Origin: Escherichia phage Henu4_2
Reading direction: 5' to 3' (one strand)
DNA length: 50,260 nt
Sequence record: PQ159479
Shown here: positions 4,179 to 50,260 of the stretch, one piece after another
Position numbering within the stretch: position 1 is the first letter of the stretch
Layout of the letters: every line of letters begins with the position of its first letter
Made by a program: the position numbers and the translations under genes
Notes under the pieces: generated by a model
What the model was told of the DNA's origin: nothing
Seen by the model: only the letters and a program-made list of their open reading frames with translations
The model's database searches: none

Positions 4179-4746
4179 AATTATCATCCTTAATGCGCCT
4201 CCTGGTGCTGGTAAAGATACGATAGGCAAGATGATTTCTTTCTATTCGCCAGGCGAGCAATGCCGCATTATTAGCTTTAAAGAGCCGATGTTTGACATTG
4301 CATTAGCTATCCTGGGTAAAGAGAACTATCAGCGCTTCATGTTGGCTTATGATGACAGAGAGCAGAAAGAAAGGCCGCAAACATTCCTGATGGGTATGTC
4401 ACCGCGTGAGTTCATGATATGGATTAGCGAGGATGTAATCAAACCTAAATTCGGCAAGGATTATTTCGGCGTAAGGTTTAACCAGAAAGTAAAAGAGTGT
4501 GATGCTCCTGTTGTTTGCACTGATGGAGGTTTCCCAGATGAAATTATCGCGCTAATCAATGCTGGTAATGAAGTGAAGCTATGCCGCTTGCATCGCGACG
4601 GGTTCACGTTTGCAGGTGATAGCCGCAACTACATTCGAATCAATCCATACTACCAGAAAAACGGATATAGTGAACACGATTACTTATTAACCAATGAAAA
4701 GCCGATGATTACAGTTAGCGAAATCATTCGCGATCACCTTAAATAG
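4171..4746 (+). CDS. P-loop nucleotide kinase (dNMP-kinase-like)
   Basis: Walker A NAPPGAGKDT at N-terminus, resembling phage dNMP kinases; 191 aa. Confidence 0.6.
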   Translation: MAKIIILNAPPGAGKDTIGKMISFYSPGEQCRIISFKEPMFDIALAILGKENYQRFMLAYDDREQKERPQTFLMGMSPREFMIWISEDVIKPKFGKDYFGVRFNQKVKECDAPVVCTDGGFPDEIIALINAGNEVKLCRLHRDGFTFAGDSRNYIRINPYYQKNGYSEHDYLLTNEKPMITVSEIIRDHLK

Positions 4747-4786
4747 CACGAATTGCTAAAACTTGCGCAAGGCCATTTGATATAGT
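4743..4786 (+). promoter_or_regulatory. conserved early element copy 6 (stem AAGGCCA/TGGCCTT, TATAGT)
   Basis: ATAGCACGAATTGCTAAAA; TGaTATAGT 22 nt after TTGCTA. Confidence 0.5.
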
Positions 4787-29836: not shown

Positions 29837-29879
29837 ATAGCACTTTTTGCTAAAAATGCCATTATATGCGTGGTATACT
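29837..29879 (+). promoter_or_regulatory. conserved early element copy 8 (stem GCGTG/CACGC, TATACT)
   Basis: ATAGCACTTTTTGCTAAAA; TGgTATACT; ATCAACCAAC leader. Confidence 0.5.
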
Positions 29880-34164: not shown

Positions 34165-35091
34165 TTATAATAAGTCACTTGCCTTGTAAAGCCTCCGCTC
34201 TATTCCATTTTTGAATTTACCGTTAACTGGTAACATTACGTCTAATTCTCGATCATCAGCAGCAATCAAAGTATCGCGATCATTAGCATGGCACACAACG
34301 CGCATTTTGCGATCTCCTTTGTATCTGTATGCAACAATTTCAAGATTTGAAGGTGAAAAACACGCCCATACTTCTTGCCCCGTCGCCAGGTGTATATGTT
34401 GCGCATCAATCCAATCAACGCAAAGGTAAATTGTTTTGTCAGTCTTGCCAGTTACCGCAACGCTTCCGCGCGTGTAATCTTTCGCGTAAAAACTGCTTTT
34501 ACCTTCCTCATTGACGAAAAGAATATTGCACATGTCATCATCCAATTCATCACTATGCACCAGGTGGCAAGGAATAGCGTGTATATGCTCGCAATATCCA
34601 TTGTCATGAGTTTTTACGCCAACTTGATACGATTCGCCGTCTAATGGATAAAACGCCTCAAAAACGCTTAGGTTTGTTATTTCCATGCGTTCAGTTTTAT
34701 CCATCACCTCAACACATTTTTCATGAGGTGCTTGCGATCCGAAATTGTAACCGGAATCACGTTTTGCCGCTTTGTTAGCCTTGTTGACAACCTCAACCGG
34801 AACCAGGTTTAACCATTCGCCTAGCGTGTCGATTGCTTCACTGTAATTTTCACCACGTATGCGCATGAACAATCCGATCCCTGAATCATTCCCACATTGG
34901 TTGCAAATGTTGCCGCCGTCGCCTTTCTCGTTGATTTTGTCAGTCCAACGAAAGCGATCTTTACCGCCGCAATAAGGGCATGGTTGGTGTTTGCCGTTAA
35001 AGGTTAATTGAGGAATATCGCAAAGTTTCATTAATGCCGCTTGCCACATGCCGCGCATTTTTGGGATCACTTCTTCTTTTTGATAATGCAT
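34165..35091 (-). CDS. DNA primase (zinc ribbon + TOPRIM-like)
   Basis: Zn-ribbon HQPCPYCGGKDRFRW...CNQCG. Confidence 0.75.
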   Translation of the reverse strand: MHYQKEEVIPKMRGMWQAALMKLCDIPQLTFNGKHQPCPYCGGKDRFRWTDKINEKGDGGNICNQCGNDSGIGLFMRIRGENYSEAIDTLGEWLNLVPVEVVNKANKAAKRDSGYNFGSQAPHEKCVEVMDKTERMEITNLSVFEAFYPLDGESYQVGVKTHDNGYCEHIHAIPCHLVHSDELDDDMCNILFVNEEGKSSFYAKDYTRGSVAVTGKTDKTIYLCVDWIDAQHIHLATGQEVWACFSPSNLEIVAYRYKGDRKMRVVCHANDRDTLIAADDRELDVMLPVNGKFKNGIERRLYKASDLL

Positions 35092-35149
35092 TTCTCAATC
35101 TCCAAATAAAAAACCTGGCACGATGATAAACCATGCCAGGCCGGAATTT

Positions 35150-35758
35150 TTAGCAATCAGTGCTATCGACGGAAATCACAACGCGTTTCTTCTGATTGGC
35201 TTCCTTTGCTTTGCGCCGTTCTTCTTTCTCCTTGTCGCGTTCAGCCTTGCGCCGCGCTTTCTCCTTCTCGCGTTCTTCTGGAGTCATAGACCGTAACGGA
35301 TCGTAAGGCCGGACAAATCCCCTTGCTTCCGCTTCCTCTTTGGTTACAAATCGCATCAGCTTTCTGTTGCTGCAACGATTCTCTAATGGTTTTCCGTTAT
35401 TATCAAACTTGATATCTGGACGGCAATATGAAGCGCGAAAACCGTTAAAACCTTTGCGGCGGTAATCTTTCTGGATCAGTTCAGCGCCTTTAGTTGAAAT
35501 CATGCCGCGCTCTTTCCATCCCCATACTGTTTTAAGGTTAACGCCAATTTCACGCGCCAGGGCAGCGCAACCGCCGTAAGCGTTGACAACTTCATCAAGA
35601 CGCGCTTTTAATCCGGCTCTTACTTCTTCCTTTAATACAAGATAACCGCTAACAGGTGCGCGACGTTTGCGATCTTTACCACGTCTTACGCCGTTGTTAC
35701 CATTGATTGTGCGTTTGTCGATTTCGCCAGTTGAGGCGGCAATTTTGATTTCGCTCAT
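35150..35758 (-). CDS. HTH DNA-binding protein with polybasic C-terminal tail (putative regulator)
   Basis: HTH-like CAALAREIGVNLKTVWGWKERG; C-terminal KR/E-rich; start at ATG 35758 with RBS AGGTGA. Confidence 0.55.
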   Translation of the reverse strand: MSEIKIAASTGEIDKRTINGNNGVRRGKDRKRRAPVSGYLVLKEEVRAGLKARLDEVVNAYGGCAALAREIGVNLKTVWGWKERGMISTKGAELIQKDYRRKGFNGFRASYCRPDIKFDNNGKPLENRCSNRKLMRFVTKEEAEARGFVRPYDPLRSMTPEEREKEKARRKAERDKEKEERRKAKEANQKKRVVISVDSTDC

Positions 35759-35768
35759 ATTTTCACCT

Positions 35769-35811
35769 ATAGCACTTTTTGCTAAAAAACTTGATTGAGT
35801 TTGTGTATGAT
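35769..35811 (+). promoter_or_regulatory. conserved early element copy 9 upstream of helicase operon
   Basis: ATAGCACTTTTTGCTAAAA then TATGAT. Confidence 0.5.
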
Positions 35812-35846: not shown

Positions 35847-37820
35847 ATGATTCCTAACATTGAAAAGCAGATTGCAGATCTTGGAGAGGAAAGGATTAAG
35901 GCAATACAGAAGCGTTTCACGGTTGGTGAGATTGTCCCGTATGAATACCAATGCGTTGCTTACGCTGAAATTGCAAAGCGCTTGAGTAAGTATGTTGATC
36001 CGTTTTTCGTAAAAGCGGCGGTATCGGCAGGTAAAACAATCATCTTTGCTATGGTTGCGGCTCAGTGCCGTAAAATGGGGTTGAAAGCGTTATTTCTGGC
36101 GCGTCAATCTGAAATTGTGGATCAGGATTCAAAAGAGATTAGCGCCTTTGGTGTTCCGAATTCCGTTTATTGCGCTGGCCTGAATACCAAAAGCGCTTAT
36201 TTCCCGATTGTTGTCGGATCGGAAGGCACTGTAATTGGTGGATTGAATAAAGCGTTGGGTGATTACGTCCCACAGGTTTTAGGTATAGATGAATGCCATC
36301 AAGTAAACTGGAATGACATTGTGGAAGCCGAGGAAAACGGCGAAAGCATAGAGCAAATGATGACTCCGAAAGGTGAACCAGTTGAAGGGCATCCGTTGCT
36401 GATTGGTTCAGGCCGCGCACAATACACCATTATCATTGCAGAAATGCGCCGCCGTTGCCTTGAGACTTACGGTCATCAGTTGCGCATATTTGGAATGACA
36501 GGATCGGAATATCGCGGAATTGAGCCGATACTTGTCGAAGATAAAAGAATTCCTGGGTTTTGGCGTGAGCAGATCACAAACATTGATACTGATTACTTGG
36601 TTAAATTTGGTTCAGTTGTTCCCACTTATTTTGGCAATGTTGGTGATTTGGGTTATGACTTATCAGAATTTACGCCAGTACATGAATTTGGCGTTGCTGA
36701 TTATGACCAGAAGCAATTAAAGGCAATGAGTGACAAGATTCACAAATCAGGAACCATGACGCAGAAAATAATGCAGATGGTTCATGAGGTGATGAAAAAC
36801 CGCTTGTGCGCTCTTGTTACTTGCGCTGACGAAAGGCACTGCAAAGAGGCGGCGGCGGCGCTTCCTCCTGGCACGAAATATCACATTATCACCGGAAAAA
36901 CTGGAGAGAAACAGCGGCGCTTATGGCTTGAGGATGCCTATGAAGGGCGCGTGAAATACATATTCCAGGTTCAAGCGCTAACAACTGGAGTGAACGTTCC
37001 GCCGTGGGATACTTCTGTTATTTTGCGTAAGATCGGAAGCCTGACGCTATTAACTCAGCTTTTGGGGCGCGGTATGCGTCAATTAAAAACTTACCATAAA
37101 GAAGTATTGGGAATGCACAAAACGGATCACCTTGTTTTGGATTTTTCCGGCACGATGTTTGAAATGGGTAATTTGTATTTCGATCCGATGTTAGAGCAAG
37201 CGCAATTCCAGTTGCGTAAATCACAGGATAAAGATCCGAAATATTGCCCGATTTGCGGCACAGAAAATTCATTCTATGCTCGCCGTTGCATTAATGAAGA
37301 TGAAAACGGAAATCGTTGTGAGCACTTTTGGACTTTTCAAACGTGTGAGGATCAGATTGATGACCGCACAAAGAAAATAACGGTAAAAGGTTGTGGTGCT
37401 AAAAATGACGTTGCGGCGCGTGTATGCCGTTGCTGTAATGTTCAGTTACGCGATCCAAATGATAACTTATCCGGCAAGATGTACCGTAAAAACGATTGGT
37501 GCGACGTGTTAGATTTTAATGTGACGCTGACAAAAAACCAGGCTGGGGTAATATTCTGCTACACGTTGCGTGATAGTGGCGGCGTAGAATTCAGGGCATA
37601 CGAAAAATATTTCCCTGAATCAGAACACAAGATATGTAAAACGCTTTGGACAAAGGCGGTTAGAACACACGTTATAGATCGCCAGGCCGCAAACTTTATG
37701 ATCACTTGCAGAAATGCAATTAAGATCATGAGTTATGCTGGGCAAATATTGCCACCAAAACGTGTTACCCATCGCAAGAACACAAAGAAAGAAGATTTGA
37801 TCGCACAGAAGGAGTTTTAA
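35847..37820 (+). CDS. superfamily II DEAH-type helicase with C-terminal zinc-ribbon region
   Basis: Walker A AAVSAGKT, motif II GIDECHQ; C-terminal CPICGT...C..C cluster. Confidence 0.85.
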   Translation: MIPNIEKQIADLGEERIKAIQKRFTVGEIVPYEYQCVAYAEIAKRLSKYVDPFFVKAAVSAGKTIIFAMVAAQCRKMGLKALFLARQSEIVDQDSKEISAFGVPNSVYCAGLNTKSAYFPIVVGSEGTVIGGLNKALGDYVPQVLGIDECHQVNWNDIVEAEENGESIEQMMTPKGEPVEGHPLLIGSGRAQYTIIIAEMRRRCLETYGHQLRIFGMTGSEYRGIEPILVEDKRIPGFWREQITNIDTDYLVKFGSVVPTYFGNVGDLGYDLSEFTPVHEFGVADYDQKQLKAMSDKIHKSGTMTQKIMQMVHEVMKNRLCALVTCADERHCKEAAAALPPGTKYHIITGKTGEKQRRLWLEDAYEGRVKYIFQVQALTTGVNVPPWDTSVILRKIGSLTLLTQLLGRGMRQLKTYHKEVLGMHKTDHLVLDFSGTMFEMGNLYFDPMLEQAQFQLRKSQDKDPKYCPICGTENSFYARRCINEDENGNRCEHFWTFQTCEDQIDDRTKKITVKGCGAKNDVAARVCRCCNVQLRDPNDNLSGKMYRKNDWCDVLDFNVTLTKNQAGVIFCYTLRDSGGVEFRAYEKYFPESEHKICKTLWTKAVRTHVIDRQAANFMITCRNAIKIMSYAGQILPPKRVTHRKNTKKEDLIAQKEF

Positions 37821-37822
37821 AT

Positions 37823-38230
37823 ATGGTTACTGACAAAGGCGATTATCTGGAGTATTACAACAAATCAGATCCAGACGATAGGAAGGAGGAAGCGCACCAG
37901 GTTGATTCTTATTCATGGCTAACATATGAGTTTACAATGTGGCTTGTTTGGCACACTAAAAACGAGGGGAAGAAAACCATAGGCACAGCCGTAAAGGATC
38001 AGCAAGCGGGTGTGAAAAAGGGAGTTAGCGACATTCTAATTCTGACTGGTTTTATTGGCTGCAAGTATTCATTTATAGCCATTGAGCTTAAACGCGCCAA
38101 CAAGAAAGGCACGAAAGTAAGCCAGGAGCAAAAGGAATTCTTACGACGCGTTAGGGAATGCGGAGGATTTGCCGCCGTATGCTATGGCGTAGAGCAAGTA
38201 AAATTGGCTATCGCAGACGCTACAAAATAG
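37823..38230 (+). CDS. VRR-NUC domain nuclease
   Basis: GVSDILIL...IAIELKRANKKGTKVSQEQKEF matches the VRR-NUC D..E.K and SxEQ pattern. Confidence 0.75.
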   Translation: MVTDKGDYLEYYNKSDPDDRKEEAHQVDSYSWLTYEFTMWLVWHTKNEGKKTIGTAVKDQQAGVKKGVSDILILTGFIGCKYSFIAIELKRANKKGTKVSQEQKEFLRRVRECGGFAAVCYGVEQVKLAIADATK

Positions 38231-38270
38231 CACTTTTTGTTAAAACAGGCGCAACGGAATGCGCCATAAT
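38226..38270 (+). promoter_or_regulatory. conserved early element copy 10 (stem GGCGC/GCGCC, CATAAT)
   Basis: ATAGCACTTTTTGTTAAAA; CATAAT 22 nt after TTGTTA; AACGAAACGGAG leader. Confidence 0.5.
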
Positions 38271-41369: not shown

Positions 41370-41585
41370 ATGCGTGAATTTATTAACTTTGCAACTTATT
41401 CAAGTGGTGGTGCTTCATTCTCTGGCGCTGCAACTGGTCAATTAATGTTGGCGGTTCTAACATTCATATTCTTTGTTATTTTCGGCGCTGTTGGCTTGTG
41501 GCTAAGGTGGCGTGACAGCAAGGCGATCCGAGAGGCGTTAGAGTGTGGAGATCTTAAAACCGCTCTTAAAATTAACCAAAAATAG
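41370..41585 (+). CDS. holin (class with single TM; pinholin candidate)
   Basis: 71 aa, TM LMLAVLTFIFFVIFGAVGLWL, charged C-terminus; directly upstream of endolysin. Confidence 0.65.
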   Translation: MREFINFATYSSGGASFSGAATGQLMLAVLTFIFFVIFGAVGLWLRWRDSKAIREALECGDLKTALKINQK

Positions 41586-41597
41586 GGAGTGAATTTA

Positions 41598-42092
41598 ATG
41601 GCTATTAAAAAGACAATAGCCGCTACCATAACGGGCGCGGCTTTAATGATGGCATCGCCCTTGATTGAAGAAATTGAGGGCGTGAGGTATAAACCTTACA
41701 AGGATATTGCAGGAATCTGGACGGTATGCCACGGAATCACAGGAAAGGATGTGATATTAGGAAAGGAATATACCAGGCGAGAATGTGACGCGCTACTTGC
41801 AAAGCATATGAAAGTTGCGGCTGACGCTGTTGATAAAGCGGTTAAGGTTGATATTCCTATTTCTATGCGAGCGGCTTTGTACTCATTCACATTCAACGCC
41901 GGAACAGGTGCATTCAGTAAATCAACCATGTTGAAGAAGATCAACAATGGTGATCTGTATGGTGGTTGTGGCGAGCTTTGGAACTGGACATATTACCGGA
42001 ACCCGAAAACGGGAAAAAAGGAAAAATCAAAGGGATTGAAGAATCGCCGCGCTGTTGAATATAAATATTGTGTAATGGATCTGAATAAATGA
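41598..42092 (+). CDS. endolysin, GH24 lysozyme with putative N-terminal SAR domain
   Basis: catalytic E-x8-D-x5-T in [19 protein letters not shown]; weakly hydrophobic Gly/Ala-rich N-terminus. Confidence 0.85.
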
Positions 42093-42478
42093 AAAGAAAA
42101 TTACTGGCTATTATGATGTGCATTGCTCTTTCTGGTTGTTCAGCTTCAAGCGTTTTACCTGGTCTGATTGGTAGCAAGCCTGATATAACGGCACAGGCTG
42201 GAGCGGAGAATGTGAAACAGACTGTTGGTGTGACCGCAAAGCAGGATACATCAAGCAAGCAGGAAACAACATTCAAAGAATCGGCAGTTGGTCAGGTTGA
42301 CACGTCAAATAAAAAGCAGGTGAGCACCTCAAGCATTAAGGCCGATAACATCACGGCGGAAAGAATAGAAATTCGCAACAATGACGGTCTTAACGTTCCG
42401 GCAATCGCAATGGGTATATTAATGTTTATTGCTGGTATGCTGGCAGGTTGGACACTAAAACGTAATAAGGCGGCATAA
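42089..42478 (+). CDS. unimolecular spanin (lipoprotein with C-terminal TM)
   Basis: lipobox LSGC at N-terminus plus C-terminal [17 protein letters not shown]; same architecture as T1 gp11. Confidence 0.7.
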
Positions 42479-42493
42479 GCCGCCTTTTCTTTT
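42467..42493 (+). terminator. rho-independent terminator after lysis cassette
   Basis: GGCGGC-ATAA-GCCGCC + TTTTCTTTT. Confidence 0.7.
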
Positions 42494-42689
42494 ACTCAAA
42501 TTTTCTAACATGAATTAGCAATTCACCATCATGATTTGTCAGTTGATGCTCTTGATCCCCAAACGCTCGCATATCGCTATAAAGCAACAGCATTAACGCA
42601 TAGACAAAATCATCATGCGGAATTTGCATTGCTGAACTTTCTTTCAAAATAAGATCTATCAAATGCTGGCTTGCTGAATAATTCTTCAT
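42492..42689 (-). CDS. hypothetical protein (overlaps next ORF by 77 nt)
   Basis: 65-aa ORF in a different frame from 42613-43005. Confidence 0.3.
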   Translation of the reverse strand: MKNYSASQHLIDLILKESSAMQIPHDDFVYALMLLLYSDMRAFGDQEHQLTNHDGELLIHVRKFE

Positions 42690-43005
42690 CGCTCATTTTC
42701 TCTATATTCATAATTTCCAAAACATAACGATTTTTATCACCTTCCAGGCTATATAGTTCGAAATTAAACGGTCTTTTCATCTTGTTTTTACACCAATATT
42801 CGCAGTGTACGCCGTCCAAATATCCAAAACCCATAAGGCGAGAAATAAACTCTTTACTCACACTTGATGCGAAATAGCGGGGAGTTACCCCCGCATTTTT
42901 TGCAAGCCTTTCACATTCACGGTTGCGGAATATAAATCTTGCTAATTCCTGGCGGTTGAATTTCTCGCGAGACTCACAAAAGCGATACAGATCTAATAAG
43001 AACAT
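42613..43005 (-). CDS. hypothetical protein translationally coupled to the DUF3987-like gene
   Basis: 130-aa ORF; ATG 2 nt after upstream stop (TAATCATG). Confidence 0.4.
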   Translation of the reverse strand: MFLLDLYRFCESREKFNRQELARFIFRNRECERLAKNAGVTPRYFASSVSKEFISRLMGFGYLDGVHCEYWCKNKMKRPFNFELYSLEGDKNRYVLEIMNIEKMSDEELFSKPAFDRSYFERKFSNANSA

Positions 43006-43007
43006 GA

Positions 43008-44588
43008 TTACCCCATTAACGCAGGATTGACATAAACAAATTTACCAACGCTGCAAACATAATTCTTTTCTTCAAGCATTGGCAATAATTGTTCTTCAAT
43101 TCGTTTCATAACGCCTGATTGACCTGTAAACGGCTTAACCTTACGCGCACTTTCATATATCGCTCTTGCATTGGTAACGCCTTTATTTTGACGTGAGATC
43201 TTAATGATGATTTCAATTAGCTTGCTCATTTCGGCATCATCGCCAGCGTGACCTGAAGCATTCGCGGCGTTAATATATGTTTTGCTTAATTCGCTGAACA
43301 TCACCAAAGCCTCTTGCATTGTCTCAACTTCAATTTCTCGCGACTTTTGCGGCGTACCGTTTGGATTAAACCAATTGCGGATCGTGTGCAATACTGACGC
43401 AATGCGGATAACTTGCTTATCCATTTTACCCAAAGCACCACGCAACATTGTATGTGAATATTTCCCGCCGTCTGCTAAATCTGGCTCTAATTGCTGTCGA
43501 GCAATATTAAGGACACGCATTGCAGAACGTGACGGCTTCAATACAACATTTTGTTCAGTCATGATGTTATGAATCAACTGGAAATATTGCGCCTTTAATT
43601 CTTTATCAACTGGCGTGTAATCAAGATCACCATTTTCATCAATAAATACACGCTCGCCTAACATTGTTTTTTCACGCACAAGCAAGAAACGTTCACTAAC
43701 ACCGATACCCCGCGCCCCTGCATCCATGATCCCTTTTATCGTTTCATCCTGGGCAATTACGCTCATGCAGCCCAACGCAACAAAACTCATATTGTTTTCA
43801 GAATTGGCGCGAGCTATTGAAACGTGTCCTGCGTCCCATGCTTTTAGAACCAATTCGCTGTTAGTCTTGCGATCACTATTAGCGTAAGTCAATCCGAGTA
43901 AGCTGTTGATGCTTGTTGCTTCATCGGAAATGACAGCAAAGTTACCCTGGCGATTGTTGATCTTTGCTAACCCTTCCGGCGTGGTGTCTGATACCGGAAA
44001 AACGATATCGCACATTTTTTCTAACTTTTCCTCTAATTCCTCCTTTTCCTCAAACAGCGCCGCTAACTCAGTGCCGGAACGTTCAGCTTTCAATTCCTTT
44101 TCAACGCCTTTTAATTTCGCTGCGATCTTCTTTCGCTCTTTCTTGCGTTGTTCGTTGATGCGCTCAACTTCACAGACCATTGGCGCAATAGCCAGGCTGT
44201 TGATTGCTGATTTACCAGTTGATGGCGGCTGACTGGTTACAACATAAAGCGCAGTTGGTTGTTCAGTGCCGTGGTACTCAACTTGGAAGCGTCCAACCAT
44301 AGCGGCGGAAACGCAACCAATGAAATGCATATAGGCCGATGATTCAGGAAATTGAACAGATTGCGCAATGCTACGTGACAGTTTACCCACAACATCAACA
44401 TCATTACCCAAAGAGATCACAGGATAACGGTCATTAGCGCCGTTGATATCCTTTACAGGTTCCCAAAAGCTGGACGATTGGCGGTAGCCGTTCGACTGAA
44501 TAGCAACGCGAAGCGGCGATGTTCCCTGCGATTCTGCAATGGCTATAACTTGTTGAGGTGTCAATTTGTTGGTGTCAAAGTCAAACAT
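43008..44588 (-). CDS. DUF3987-like P-loop protein (replication-associated, function unknown)
   Basis: Walker-A-like SQPPSTGKSA; DTTPEGL, SDEA, KAWDAGHVSIAR, IAQDE, RFLLV match my recollection of the DUF3987 consensus. Confidence 0.55.
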   Translation of the reverse strand: MFDFDTNKLTPQQVIAIAESQGTSPLRVAIQSNGYRQSSSFWEPVKDINGANDRYPVISLGNDVDVVGKLSRSIAQSVQFPESSAYMHFIGCVSAAMVGRFQVEYHGTEQPTALYVVTSQPPSTGKSAINSLAIAPMVCEVERINEQRKKERKKIAAKLKGVEKELKAERSGTELAALFEEKEELEEKLEKMCDIVFPVSDTTPEGLAKINNRQGNFAVISDEATSINSLLGLTYANSDRKTNSELVLKAWDAGHVSIARANSENNMSFVALGCMSVIAQDETIKGIMDAGARGIGVSERFLLVREKTMLGERVFIDENGDLDYTPVDKELKAQYFQLIHNIMTEQNVVLKPSRSAMRVLNIARQQLEPDLADGGKYSHTMLRGALGKMDKQVIRIASVLHTIRNWFNPNGTPQKSREIEVETMQEALVMFSELSKTYINAANASGHAGDDAEMSKLIEIIIKISRQNKGVTNARAIYESARKVKPFTGQSGVMKRIEEQLLPMLEEKNYVCSVGKFVYVNPALMG

Positions 44589-44603
44589 CTAAAAATCTCC
44601 TTC

Positions 44604-44659
44604 TTGTTGCCGCTAATTATAACGGCAACATTCTACAGCCTTTTAGCAATTCGTGCTAT
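44604..44659 (-). promoter_or_regulatory. conserved early element (minus), stem GTTGCCG/CGGCAAC with TATAAT in loop
   Basis: minus-strand ATAGCACGAATTGCTAAAA then hairpin with TATAAT; RBS AAGGAG. Confidence 0.5.
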
Positions 44660-44904
44660 TTGATCGGCTCAACCCTGGCTAATAACTTTCCGTCTATAAT
44701 GCTATGACATTCAAGAGTTTTAGGATCGAATGCAAGCGAACGATGGAACGTATGACCAATCAGCAAATATGAATGCTTATCCCTGATGCGATAGACCGTT
44801 TCACCTTCCTTTAATGAGGATATCGCACTGAAAACAACCTTGTAACGGTATTTTTGCATGGCCTCAGAACGGTGAGGAATGTAATCTTTTTCCGGTAAAC
44901 TCAT
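44656..44904 (-). CDS. hypothetical protein
   Basis: 82-aa ORF; stop TAG inside the motif. Confidence 0.45.
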   Translation of the reverse strand: MSLPEKDYIPHRSEAMQKYRYKVVFSAISSLKEGETVYRIRDKHSYLLIGHTFHRSLAFDPKTLECHSIIDGKLLARVEPIK

Positions 44905-45294: not shown

Positions 45295-45339
45295 CATTAT
45301 GCCGGATACGTGATCCGGCGTTTTAACAAAAAGTGCTAT
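45295..45339 (-). promoter_or_regulatory. conserved early element (minus), stem GCCGGAT/ATCCGGC, CATAAT
   Basis: minus-strand AATAGCACTTTTTGTTAAAAC + hairpin + CATAAT + TTCAACGAAAAC leader. Confidence 0.5.
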
Positions 45340-47640: not shown

Positions 47641-47686
47641 CATTATGCCAAAACAAACCGGATCGCTTTTAACAAAAAGTGCTATT
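47641..47686 (-). promoter_or_regulatory. conserved early element (minus), CATAAT
   Basis: minus-strand AAATAGCACTTTTTGTTAAAAGC ... GGCATAATG ... TTCATCGAAACGAACC leader. Confidence 0.5.
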
Positions 47687-48545: not shown

Positions 48546-48590
48546 ATTATGCCGGATTGCTCAGGCGATGTTTTAACAAAAAGTGCTATT
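48546..48590 (-). promoter_or_regulatory. conserved early element (minus), CATAAT
   Basis: minus-strand AATAATAGCACTTTTTGTTAAAAC ... GGCATAATAC ... ATCAACCAATAAGGAG. Confidence 0.5.
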
Positions 48591-49556: not shown

Positions 49557-49602
49557 ATCATAGCAATTCGTGACTGATTGGTTTTAACAAAAAGTGCTAT
49601 TC
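49557..49602 (-). promoter_or_regulatory. conserved early element (minus) with adjacent half-copy, TATGAT
   Basis: minus-strand GAATAGCACTTTTTGTTAAAACC followed by CACGAATTGCTATGAT and TTCATCGAAACGAAC leader. Confidence 0.5.
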
Positions 49603-49608
49603 ATGCGA

Positions 49609-49638
49609 TAGACCGATTGGTCTAGACCGTTTGGTCTA
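49609..49638. promoter_or_regulatory. two overlapping 16-bp palindromes (operator-like)
   Basis: TAGACCGATTGGTCTA and TAGACCGTTTGGTCTA sharing a central TA. Confidence 0.5.
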
Positions 49639-49670
49639 ATGAACACATCGTTTCTTGTATCGAACGGATT

Positions 49671-49706
49671 CACGATCACGTTATGCGATCACAATATGAT
49701 CACGTT
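49671..49706. repeat. cluster of three GATCAC (Dam-site) repeats at 11-13 bp spacing
   Basis: GATC at 49674, 49687, 49698, each in a CGATCAC context. Confidence 0.5.
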
Positions 49707-49720
49707 GATGATTGATGTGT

Positions 49721-49770
49721 GAGTTGATGTGATGTGATTTGATTAGATTTGATTAGATTTGAGTAGCGAG
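49721..49770. repeat. five tandem 10-bp iteron-like repeats
   Basis: GAGTTGATGT / GATGTGATTT / GATTAGATTT / GATTAGATTT / GAGTAGCGAG. Confidence 0.5.
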
Positions 49771-49919
49771 AGAGTGGAAATAATCACACCTTGCCGATCT
49801 CGTGAAAACTTTTCCGCAAAACATCACACCCTGGCTTGCGCGTTGTCTAAAACGTTCCACGATGTTCACGGGTTTACCTTCCGTAAAAAAGCGAAACAGA
49901 AAACAACAATGAATCACCC

Positions 49920-50080
49920 TATAACATACTAAAAAGTAAGATAATTTTATTTATATATCTATAAAAGTTTCTAGTTGTTTAGCTTGTTCTCTATATATAG
50001 GGATACCCCACGTATATTTTCTAACTTTATATGGTTATGTGTATGCTCCAGGGTATATGTATATATATGGGTATGTTCCG
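49920..50080. repeat. AT-rich low-complexity region (control region B, related to 28430-28620)
   Basis: shares TATATATCTAT, GTTCTCTAT and TATATATGGTATG blocks with region A. Confidence 0.5.
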
Positions 50081-50199
50081 AAATCGGCGTAGTTTTTGAA
50101 AACGCGCCGCAAAACATTGAAATCAAAGGCGATAAACACAAAAAGGCGTCTAAACAGAACAATATTCTGATTGTAGACATAAGAACAACAGAAAAAACT

Positions 50200-50228
50200 T
50201 TGACTATGCGCCAGCACATCAGCATAAT
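50200..50228 (+). promoter_or_regulatory. near-consensus sigma70 promoter (TTGACT-17-CATAAT) for gene 1
   Basis: TTGACT 50200-50205, CATAAT 50223-50228; ATCAAAACCAATCAGGAGAAAACCCT leader runs to the window end; ATG at position 1 on circularisation. Confidence 0.65.
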
Positions 50229-50260
50229 GCACACATCAAAACCAATCAGGAGAAAACCCT

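Follow-up and report, generated by a model that had tools for sequence, protein, structure and literature searches.

What does the large P-loop protein encoded at positions 43,008 to 44,588 of Escherichia phage Henu4_2 (record PQ159479) do in a genome that has a primase and no helicase of the DnaB or gp4 type? The stretch analysed here, referred to as the window, comprises 50,260 nucleotides (nt) and resembles a full genome linearised at the first of the rightward early genes, with an ATG at base 1 and a ribosome-binding site at the last bases. The open reading frame (ORF) in question lies on the minus strand, starts with ATG, ends in a stop codon at 43008-43010 and encodes 526 amino acids (aa). 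A first-pass annotation of the letters alone had assigned the product to DUF3987 and regarded this family as lacking an established biochemical role. We propose that this T1-like phage unwinds its replication forks with the protein, a superfamily 6 (SF6) AAA+ enzyme with an MCM-fold motor, and consider this assignment likely. It is supported by results computed here: the protein belongs to the family and has the fold, its ATPase residues are strictly conserved, it ends in a winged helix, it recurs across Drexlerviridae and it is linked to primases by fusion or adjacency in relatives.

43008..44588, minus strand: DUF3987/MCM-like AAA+ helicase gene, complete (Pfam DUF3987; PHROG 2373; identity to Stevie gp44 and the LL5 protein)

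Membership of the 526-aa protein in DUF3987 is far beyond chance. The hidden Markov model search against Pfam, whose gathering cut-off for this family is 27 bits, returned PF13148 with E=5.9e-43 and 147.9 bits (residues 81-432; profile positions 3-352 of 364), in agreement with the first-pass call. All motifs on which that call drew were located at exact positions: SQPPSTGKSA at residues 119-128, DTTPEGL at 201-207, SDEA at 221-224, KAWDAGHVSIAR at 249-260, IAQDE at 278-282 and RFLLV at 300-304. A search of NCBIfam with the protein yielded no match, and PHROG 2373 ('DNA helicase') was matched with E=4e-253. Both RefSeq and PHROGs already label this exact protein 'DNA helicase', and the same label is carried by Stevie gp44 and the protein of phage LL5, to which it is 100% identical. 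The gene is already catalogued as a DNA helicase; its family was classified in 2016, and one family member was assayed in 2025.

According to Kazlauskas et al. 2016 (PMC4889955), phage DUF3987 proteins are SF6 helicases that are distantly related to MCM, carry a C-terminal winged helix, are often linked to primases and are predicted to act in replication. The Kazlauskas group also listed DUF3987 among the ATPase domains that substitute for known helicases in primase fusions. The only DUF3987 member with measured activity is AgaPH, a PriCT-DUF3987 protein from a Seonamhaeicola mobile element (Nucleic Acids Res 2025, PMC11724360). Purified AgaPH, which behaves as an oligomer on elution, is a 5'-3' helicase that runs on ATP or dATP and interacts with its primase-polymerase; mutation of Walker A or Walker B abolishes its activity (PMC11724360). 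The 2016 classification and the 2025 helicase assay contradict the earlier view of DUF3987 as a family without a biochemical role.

At the DNA level the gene is 98-99% identical to its counterparts in Tlsvirus (Drexlerviridae) phages, including UTK0007, YSP2, U136B and Stevie. A translated search of phage records retrieved the protein from 919 entries, nearly full length in 900 of them, with hosts that include Escherichia, Klebsiella, Salmonella, Shigella and Citrobacter; identity among these orthologs is mostly 57-80% and ~35% in the most distant ones. An exhaustive search at E up to 0.001 gave relatives in 2511 clusters (50% identity). The ortholog in phage T1 is ST9 (RefSeq 'DNA helicase'), which occupies the same position after the lysis genes and is followed by ST10. 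Immediately upstream of ST9, T1 carries an HNH endonuclease gene, ST8 (L006 46085-46624, minus strand), an insertion that is lacking at this place in the window. The helicase seems to be split or truncated in some database records (HCF1, 2019SD1, STSR3).

Linkage to priming is apparent from the gene set of the phage, from fusion proteins and from gene order in relatives. The gene inventory of the genome lacks a DnaB/gp4-type helicase, a loader and a DNA polymerase; it includes exonuclease VIII, an Erf-like annealing protein, SSB (which binds single-stranded DNA) and a VRR-NUC nuclease, together with a primase and a superfamily 2 (SF2) helicase.

34165..35091, minus strand: stand-alone primase of the T7 gp4/P4 alpha N-half type, the presumed working partner of the DUF3987 protein (Pfam Zn_Ribbon_Prim, E=1.4e-13)
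35847..37820, plus strand: SF2 helicase (ResIII + Helicase_C by Pfam), not a ring helicase; syntenic partner in relatives, which carry a homolog

The primase matches PHROG 510 only at profile positions 11-340 of 667, which correspond to the primase half of primase-helicase profiles. Because the genome has no DnaB/gp4-type helicase and the primase has no helicase half, the DUF3987 protein is the only candidate for a ring helicase. The SF2 protein, which the first-pass annotation had treated as 'the helicase', is unlikely to be the enzyme at the fork.

Among the fusion proteins, one consists of a DnaG-type zinc ribbon followed by a DUF3987 part that is 35% identical to residues 13-523 of the phage protein (P0132), whereas DUF3987 is preceded by a DnaB N-terminal domain in a second (P0199) and by PriCT_2 in a third (P0231). 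In phage contigs encoding 37-38% identical relatives, the DUF3987 gene resides beside homologs of the window primase (E=6e-11) and of the SF2 helicase, with SSB close by. The SF2 homolog (32% identity, E=1e-84) is adjacent in L002 and L003, and primase adjacency is found in L003, at a distance of two genes, and in L004. Kinship of the window primase with the primase part of P0132 was also considered and rejected, as the two are unrelated primase types.

The AlphaFold2 model of the protein (predicted local distance difference test score (pLDDT) 89.1, predicted template modelling score 0.87) displays an MCM-type AAA+ fold, and the top 50 Foldseek matches to it are all MCM. No DnaB or gp4 helicase domain was detected by Pfam, NCBIfam or PDB sequence search, nor among the top structural matches. 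In the PDB sequence search, the protein and a 28-sequence profile gave chance matches only (E above 0.3), and no structure of the family is detectable by sequence. The predicted elements, in order from the N terminus, are as follows.

44295..44588, minus strand: N-terminal all-helical domain, aa 1-98, possibly a collar or primase contact (AlphaFold2 secondary structure)
44208..44231, minus strand: Walker A/P-loop QPPSTGKS, aa 120-127, after strand 115-119 of the model
44016..44207, minus strand: two long antiparallel helices forming a hairpin, aa ~128-191, inserted after the Walker A helix and before strand 2 (helices 126-168 and 172-191; pLDDT ~90)
43920..43940, minus strand: Walker B strand FAVISDE, aa 217-223, with catalytic Glu223 (strand 217-221 of the model)
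43776..43829, minus strand: beta-hairpin with the invariant Arg260 (aa 254-271) in the pre-sensor-1 position; position and MCM-like fold make it a candidate for the pore loop that contacts DNA (strands 255-258 and 267-270)
43743..43772, minus strand: strand 4 with candidate sensor-1 Gln280 (CMSVIAQDE, aa 273-282; strand 273-279)
43686..43697, minus strand: SERF motif, aa 298-301, with candidate arginine finger Arg300, like the 'SRF' of MCM, directly before strand 301-305
43374..43604, minus strand: alpha-helical lid, aa 329-405, with invariant Lys388 and a conserved R383-G-x-x-G-K-x-D motif; sensor-2 candidate (helices 329-343, 354-371, 380-387 and 389-405)
43011..43328, minus strand: helical linker and C-terminal winged-helix domain, aa 421-526 (linker/winged helix at residues 421-520 of the model)

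The Walker A motif and the association of the DUF3987 family with primases, both put forward in the first-pass annotation, are upheld by these data, the association through relatives and not through gene order in this genome. The motor fold is common to archaeal and eukaryotic MCM and to the model of the phage protein, while the sequence similarity between them is not significant. In place of the N-terminal OB-fold/zinc domain of MCM, the phage protein starts with an all-helical domain (aa 1-98), for which the model predicts no strands before residue 101 and neither an MCM-like OB fold nor a zinc finger; this domain is retained behind the primase part of the P0132 fusion, where query residues 13-523 align. 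The second difference from MCM is the hairpin of ~60 residues after the Walker A helix, which is absent from MCM. It is K/E-rich, lies inside the DUF3987 profile match and is conserved in length across relatives.

In an alignment of 141 relatives with identities down to ~26%, residues K126, E223, R260, G296, R300 and K388 are invariant (141/141). Position 127 is Ser or Thr throughout (141/141), and Q280 (140/141), E299 (134/141) and R383 (104/141) are conserved to varying degrees; position 222 varies between Asp, Ala and Ser. As judged from the alignment, this residue pattern is that of an active ATP-driven motor. R300 is a candidate arginine finger, Q280 a candidate sensor 1 and R260 a candidate DNA-contacting pore residue, as suggested by where they lie in the model and by the order of the motifs.

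According to our model, the protein would assemble into a ring, in which Q280, together with Arg300 from the subunit next to it, would sense ATP at the Walker A (K126)/Walker B (E223) site, and the Arg260 hairpin would draw single-stranded DNA through the pore. Movement would be 5'-3' on the lagging-strand template, by analogy with AgaPH and in the manner of DnaB and T7 gp4. The stand-alone phage primase would lay the primers and, because the phage has no polymerase of its own, DNA synthesis would fall to host DNA polymerase III (Pol III). Loading or site recognition may be aided by the C-terminal winged helix, and perhaps also by a translationally coupled winged-helix protein encoded directly downstream.

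42613..43005, minus strand: 130-aa winged-helix protein, possible helicase partner, starting 2 nt after the helicase stop codon

This 130-aa protein is found only in Drexlerviridae, where ST10 is its T1 ortholog. It is confidently predicted to be a winged helix of generic fold (pLDDT 88); close to its C terminus it has an acidic motif, SD(E/D)ELF, that is invariant. Its role may be that of a partner to the helicase, of a protein that binds the origin or of a regulator. The small genes around the helicase in distant relatives were compared in search of conserved partners, and no similarity was found.

MCM moves 3'-5', in contrast to the tested DUF3987 member AgaPH with its 5'-3' polarity. T7 gp4 and DnaB, ring helicases coupled to a TOPRIM/zinc-ribbon primase, probably do the same job as the phage protein, but their motor has the RecA fold and is unrelated to the AAA+ motor predicted here. 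The MCM-like helicase Cch of staphylococcal SCCmec belongs to a different Pfam family (DUF927), and its structural match is far weaker than that of MCM. AgaPH and the phage protein have in common DUF3987, a Walker A/B ATPase core and a small C-terminal domain. This likeness is one of family and architecture; residues 66-508 of the phage protein are matched by P0231, a PriCT_2+DUF3987 protein of the architecture seen in AgaPH, with 33% identity (E=6e-36). The two systems differ at the N terminus, which is a PriCT domain in AgaPH and a different, helical domain in the phage protein. They also differ in their partners: AgaPH works with an adjacently encoded archaeo-eukaryotic-type primase-polymerase, whereas the presumed partner of the phage protein is a T7/P4-type primase encoded 8 kb away, with the host polymerase performing synthesis. 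Phage-encoded DUF3987/SF6 helicases with a predicted replicative role, as here, include the Mycobacterium phage Corndog protein and N4 dns, both likened by description (PMC4889955). N4 dns is reported to be essential for replication and to be a DUF3987/SF6-group helicase fused to an archaeo-eukaryotic primase domain (PMC4889955); this domain is C-terminal in dns, whereas the Drexlerviridae protein is a stand-alone helicase.

A number of observations weigh against assigning the protein to the fork. No match to Pfam MCM (PF00493) was obtained at E up to 10, and hhalign against the human MCM2 core (residues 515-680) gave a probability below 2%, aligning only P-loop or SERF/SRF segments. The queries were alignment A1 and then the 141-sequence family profile, and the MCM2 fragment was validated at 349 bits against PDB MCM2. 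In the best local segment SERFLLV pairs with ISRFDIL of MCM2, which is non-significant, and the Q280 strand pairs with 'VIAAAN' of MCM only in a non-significant greedy alignment. Because the hhalign link to MCM is not significant, the equivalences of sensor 1, arginine finger and pore hairpin remain candidates placed by position in the predicted structure, not by residue-level superposition. Ring formation and polarity are likewise proposed by analogy, while MCM itself moves 3'-5'. Our literature search found no paper with an experiment on any Drexlerviridae ortholog and, within the library searched, nothing usable on host dnaB dependence of T1, on T1 amber genes or on defence escape mutants in this gene, and the 2024 re-annotation of TLS omits this protein from its replication proteins. 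Finally, the gene is located 8 kb from the primase gene in this genome. This separation, seen in Tlsvirus and in T1, is a lineage-specific rearrangement of one module, because the genes are adjacent in relatives. The first-pass remark that the gene stands far from the primase and helicase is thus accurate for this genome (~8 kb) and does not extend to its distant relatives.

The fork-helicase model can be extended to an initiator-helicase like P4 alpha or SaPI Rep, in which the winged helix and/or the 130-aa protein would recognise an origin and the ring would melt it and continue as fork helicase. The C-terminal winged helix is compatible with this extension, as is the winged-helix ORF 2 nt after the stop codon, which is conserved in T1. 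Moreover, no other initiator-like gene is annotated in the genome, and a non-coding region of ~600 bp (49602-50200) contains palindromes, short tandem repeats and an AT-rich stretch. Yet there are no iterons beside the gene, tandem repeats being absent from 42-45 kb, the TLS authors found no origin-type repeats, and the small flanking ORFs differ in distant relatives. In addition, T1-like phages may start replication by recombination, as the RecE/Erf/SSB gene set suggests. We consider an initiator function rather unlikely.

Distinctly less probable is a motor for recombination or fork restart, which would carry out branch migration or strand exchange in the manner of ComM or RuvB and serve RecE/Erf-dependent replication, with host DnaB driving the forks. 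The phage does encode exonuclease VIII, an Erf-like annealing protein and a VRR-NUC nuclease, and in relatives the gene is part of a block with the SF2 helicase, DUF3799, AAA_24 and SSB. However, the fusions to primase zinc-ribbon, DnaB N-terminal and PriCT domains indicate unwinding coupled to priming, and AgaPH binds its primase-polymerase.

AAA+ loaders exist in other phages, and a phage without a polymerase must use host replication proteins; the protein could accordingly be pictured as a loader or remodeller in the manner of lambda P or DnaC, which would recruit or hijack host DnaB without unwinding DNA itself. This is very improbable. The predicted fold matches MCM and its relatives instead of the DnaC/DnaA/Cdc6 group, the structural matches to ORC/Cdc6 align just 80-114 residues via the winged helices, and an invariant hairpin arginine such as Arg260 is typical of translocating motors. 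Furthermore, the one tested family member, AgaPH, unwinds DNA alone, and in one relative a DnaB N-terminal domain is joined to DUF3987 in place of DnaB's own motor.

The least credible alternative is an ATPase for defence, counter-defence or exclusion outside replication, implied by the host-range test suggested in the first-pass annotation: although the gene lies in an arm rich in small genes of unknown function and DUF3987 proteins often occur on mobile elements where defence genes are present as well (PMC11724360), the PADLOC models of anti-phage defence matched 0 families at E up to 1, every catalytic residue of a DNA motor is conserved, and full-length presence in ~900 phage genomes, mostly at 57-80% and down to ~35% identity, is the pattern of a core gene.

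The leftward genes of the right arm start near 49600 and end at 42492; the helicase gene, on the minus strand, is thus close to the promoter-distal end of this unit and not at the head of a right-arm cluster as first described. The 'early element' of its own that had been ascribed to it does exist, in the form of a repeat copy 71-73 nt 5' of the ATG.

44641..44661, minus strand: copy of the Tlsvirus 21-nt intergenic direct repeat (aaATAGCACGAATTGCTAAAA)
44597..44621, minus strand: TATAAT box (44621..44616) and AAGGAG Shine-Dalgarno sequence (44602..44597) 5' of the helicase ATG, as read from the sequence
1192-1210, 4743-4761, 29837-29855, 35769-35787 and 38227-38245: examples of exact copies of the 19-nt repeat core
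35148-35166, 44641-44659, 45321-45339, 47667-47685, 48571-48589 and 49582-49600, minus strand: further examples of exact copies of the 19-nt core

The published Tlsvirus consensus is aaATAGCACnnnTTGnTAAAA, and the TLS authors leave its function as an open question (PMC11447400). Its 19-nt core (ATAGCACnnnTTGnTAAAA) has 15 exact matches in the window, all oriented with transcription. The same repeat is located 5' of the primase and SF2 helicase genes; because it precedes these two as well as the DUF3987 gene, the three replication genes have an upstream signal in common. More generally, the 21-nt repeat precedes many early/middle genes, ~71-78 nt ahead of their start codons. The ribosome-binding site AAGGAG lies 8 nt 5' of the helicase ATG, and the spacing of 22 nt between TTGCTA and TATAAT is a non-canonical geometry for sigma-70; a simple sigma-70 promoter scan 5' of the helicase gene called no promoter. 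A conserved cassette recurs in the right arm, consisting of the repeat, 22 nt, CATAAT or TATAAT, a conserved leader and a Shine-Dalgarno sequence, with the 22-nt spacing again atypical for sigma-70.

Between the divergent early units lies a non-coding region of ~660 bp (49602-50260), which may have a role in control or hold a replication origin; origin-type repeats were not found by the authors of the TLS paper. It contains a palindromic 14-mer present twice (49609-49638), several GATCAC-type motifs (~49670-49705), tandem repeats of TGATT / GATTTGATTA (49720-49766), a very AT-rich segment in which TATATA runs occur (~49910-50075) and, reading rightward, the near-consensus promoter TTGACT-17-CATAAT (50200-50228). 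Where the leftward unit ends, it is divided from the convergent lysis cassette (holin, endolysin and spanin, 41370-42478) by a strong hairpin terminator of bidirectional type at 42467-42486 (AAGGCGGC-loop-GCCGCCTT, flanked by T runs on each side).

Taken at its most general, the fork-helicase assignment describes an ordinary core replication gene, whose product is most likely the usual enzyme of fork unwinding, present in all T1-like phages. It also corrects the record in that DUF3987 is not a blank family, and its member is the best fork-helicase candidate in T1-like phages, as opposed to the SF2 protein usually credited by genome papers. T1-like phages are common in therapy collections and in defence-system screens, and knowledge of their replicative motor aids the reading of escape mutants and the choice of essential targets. 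Whether the forks of T1 and ~900 sequenced relatives are run by a hybrid replisome, in which a T7/P4-type primase and the Pol III holoenzyme of the host would both couple to a 5'-3' MCM-fold ring, we judge to be evenly balanced. If so, a motor of archaeal/eukaryotic type would cooperate with a bacterial polymerase and clamp loader, and T1-like phages would offer a simple E. coli system for the opposite polarity of an MCM-like motor and for the coupling of Pol III to a helicase other than DnaB.
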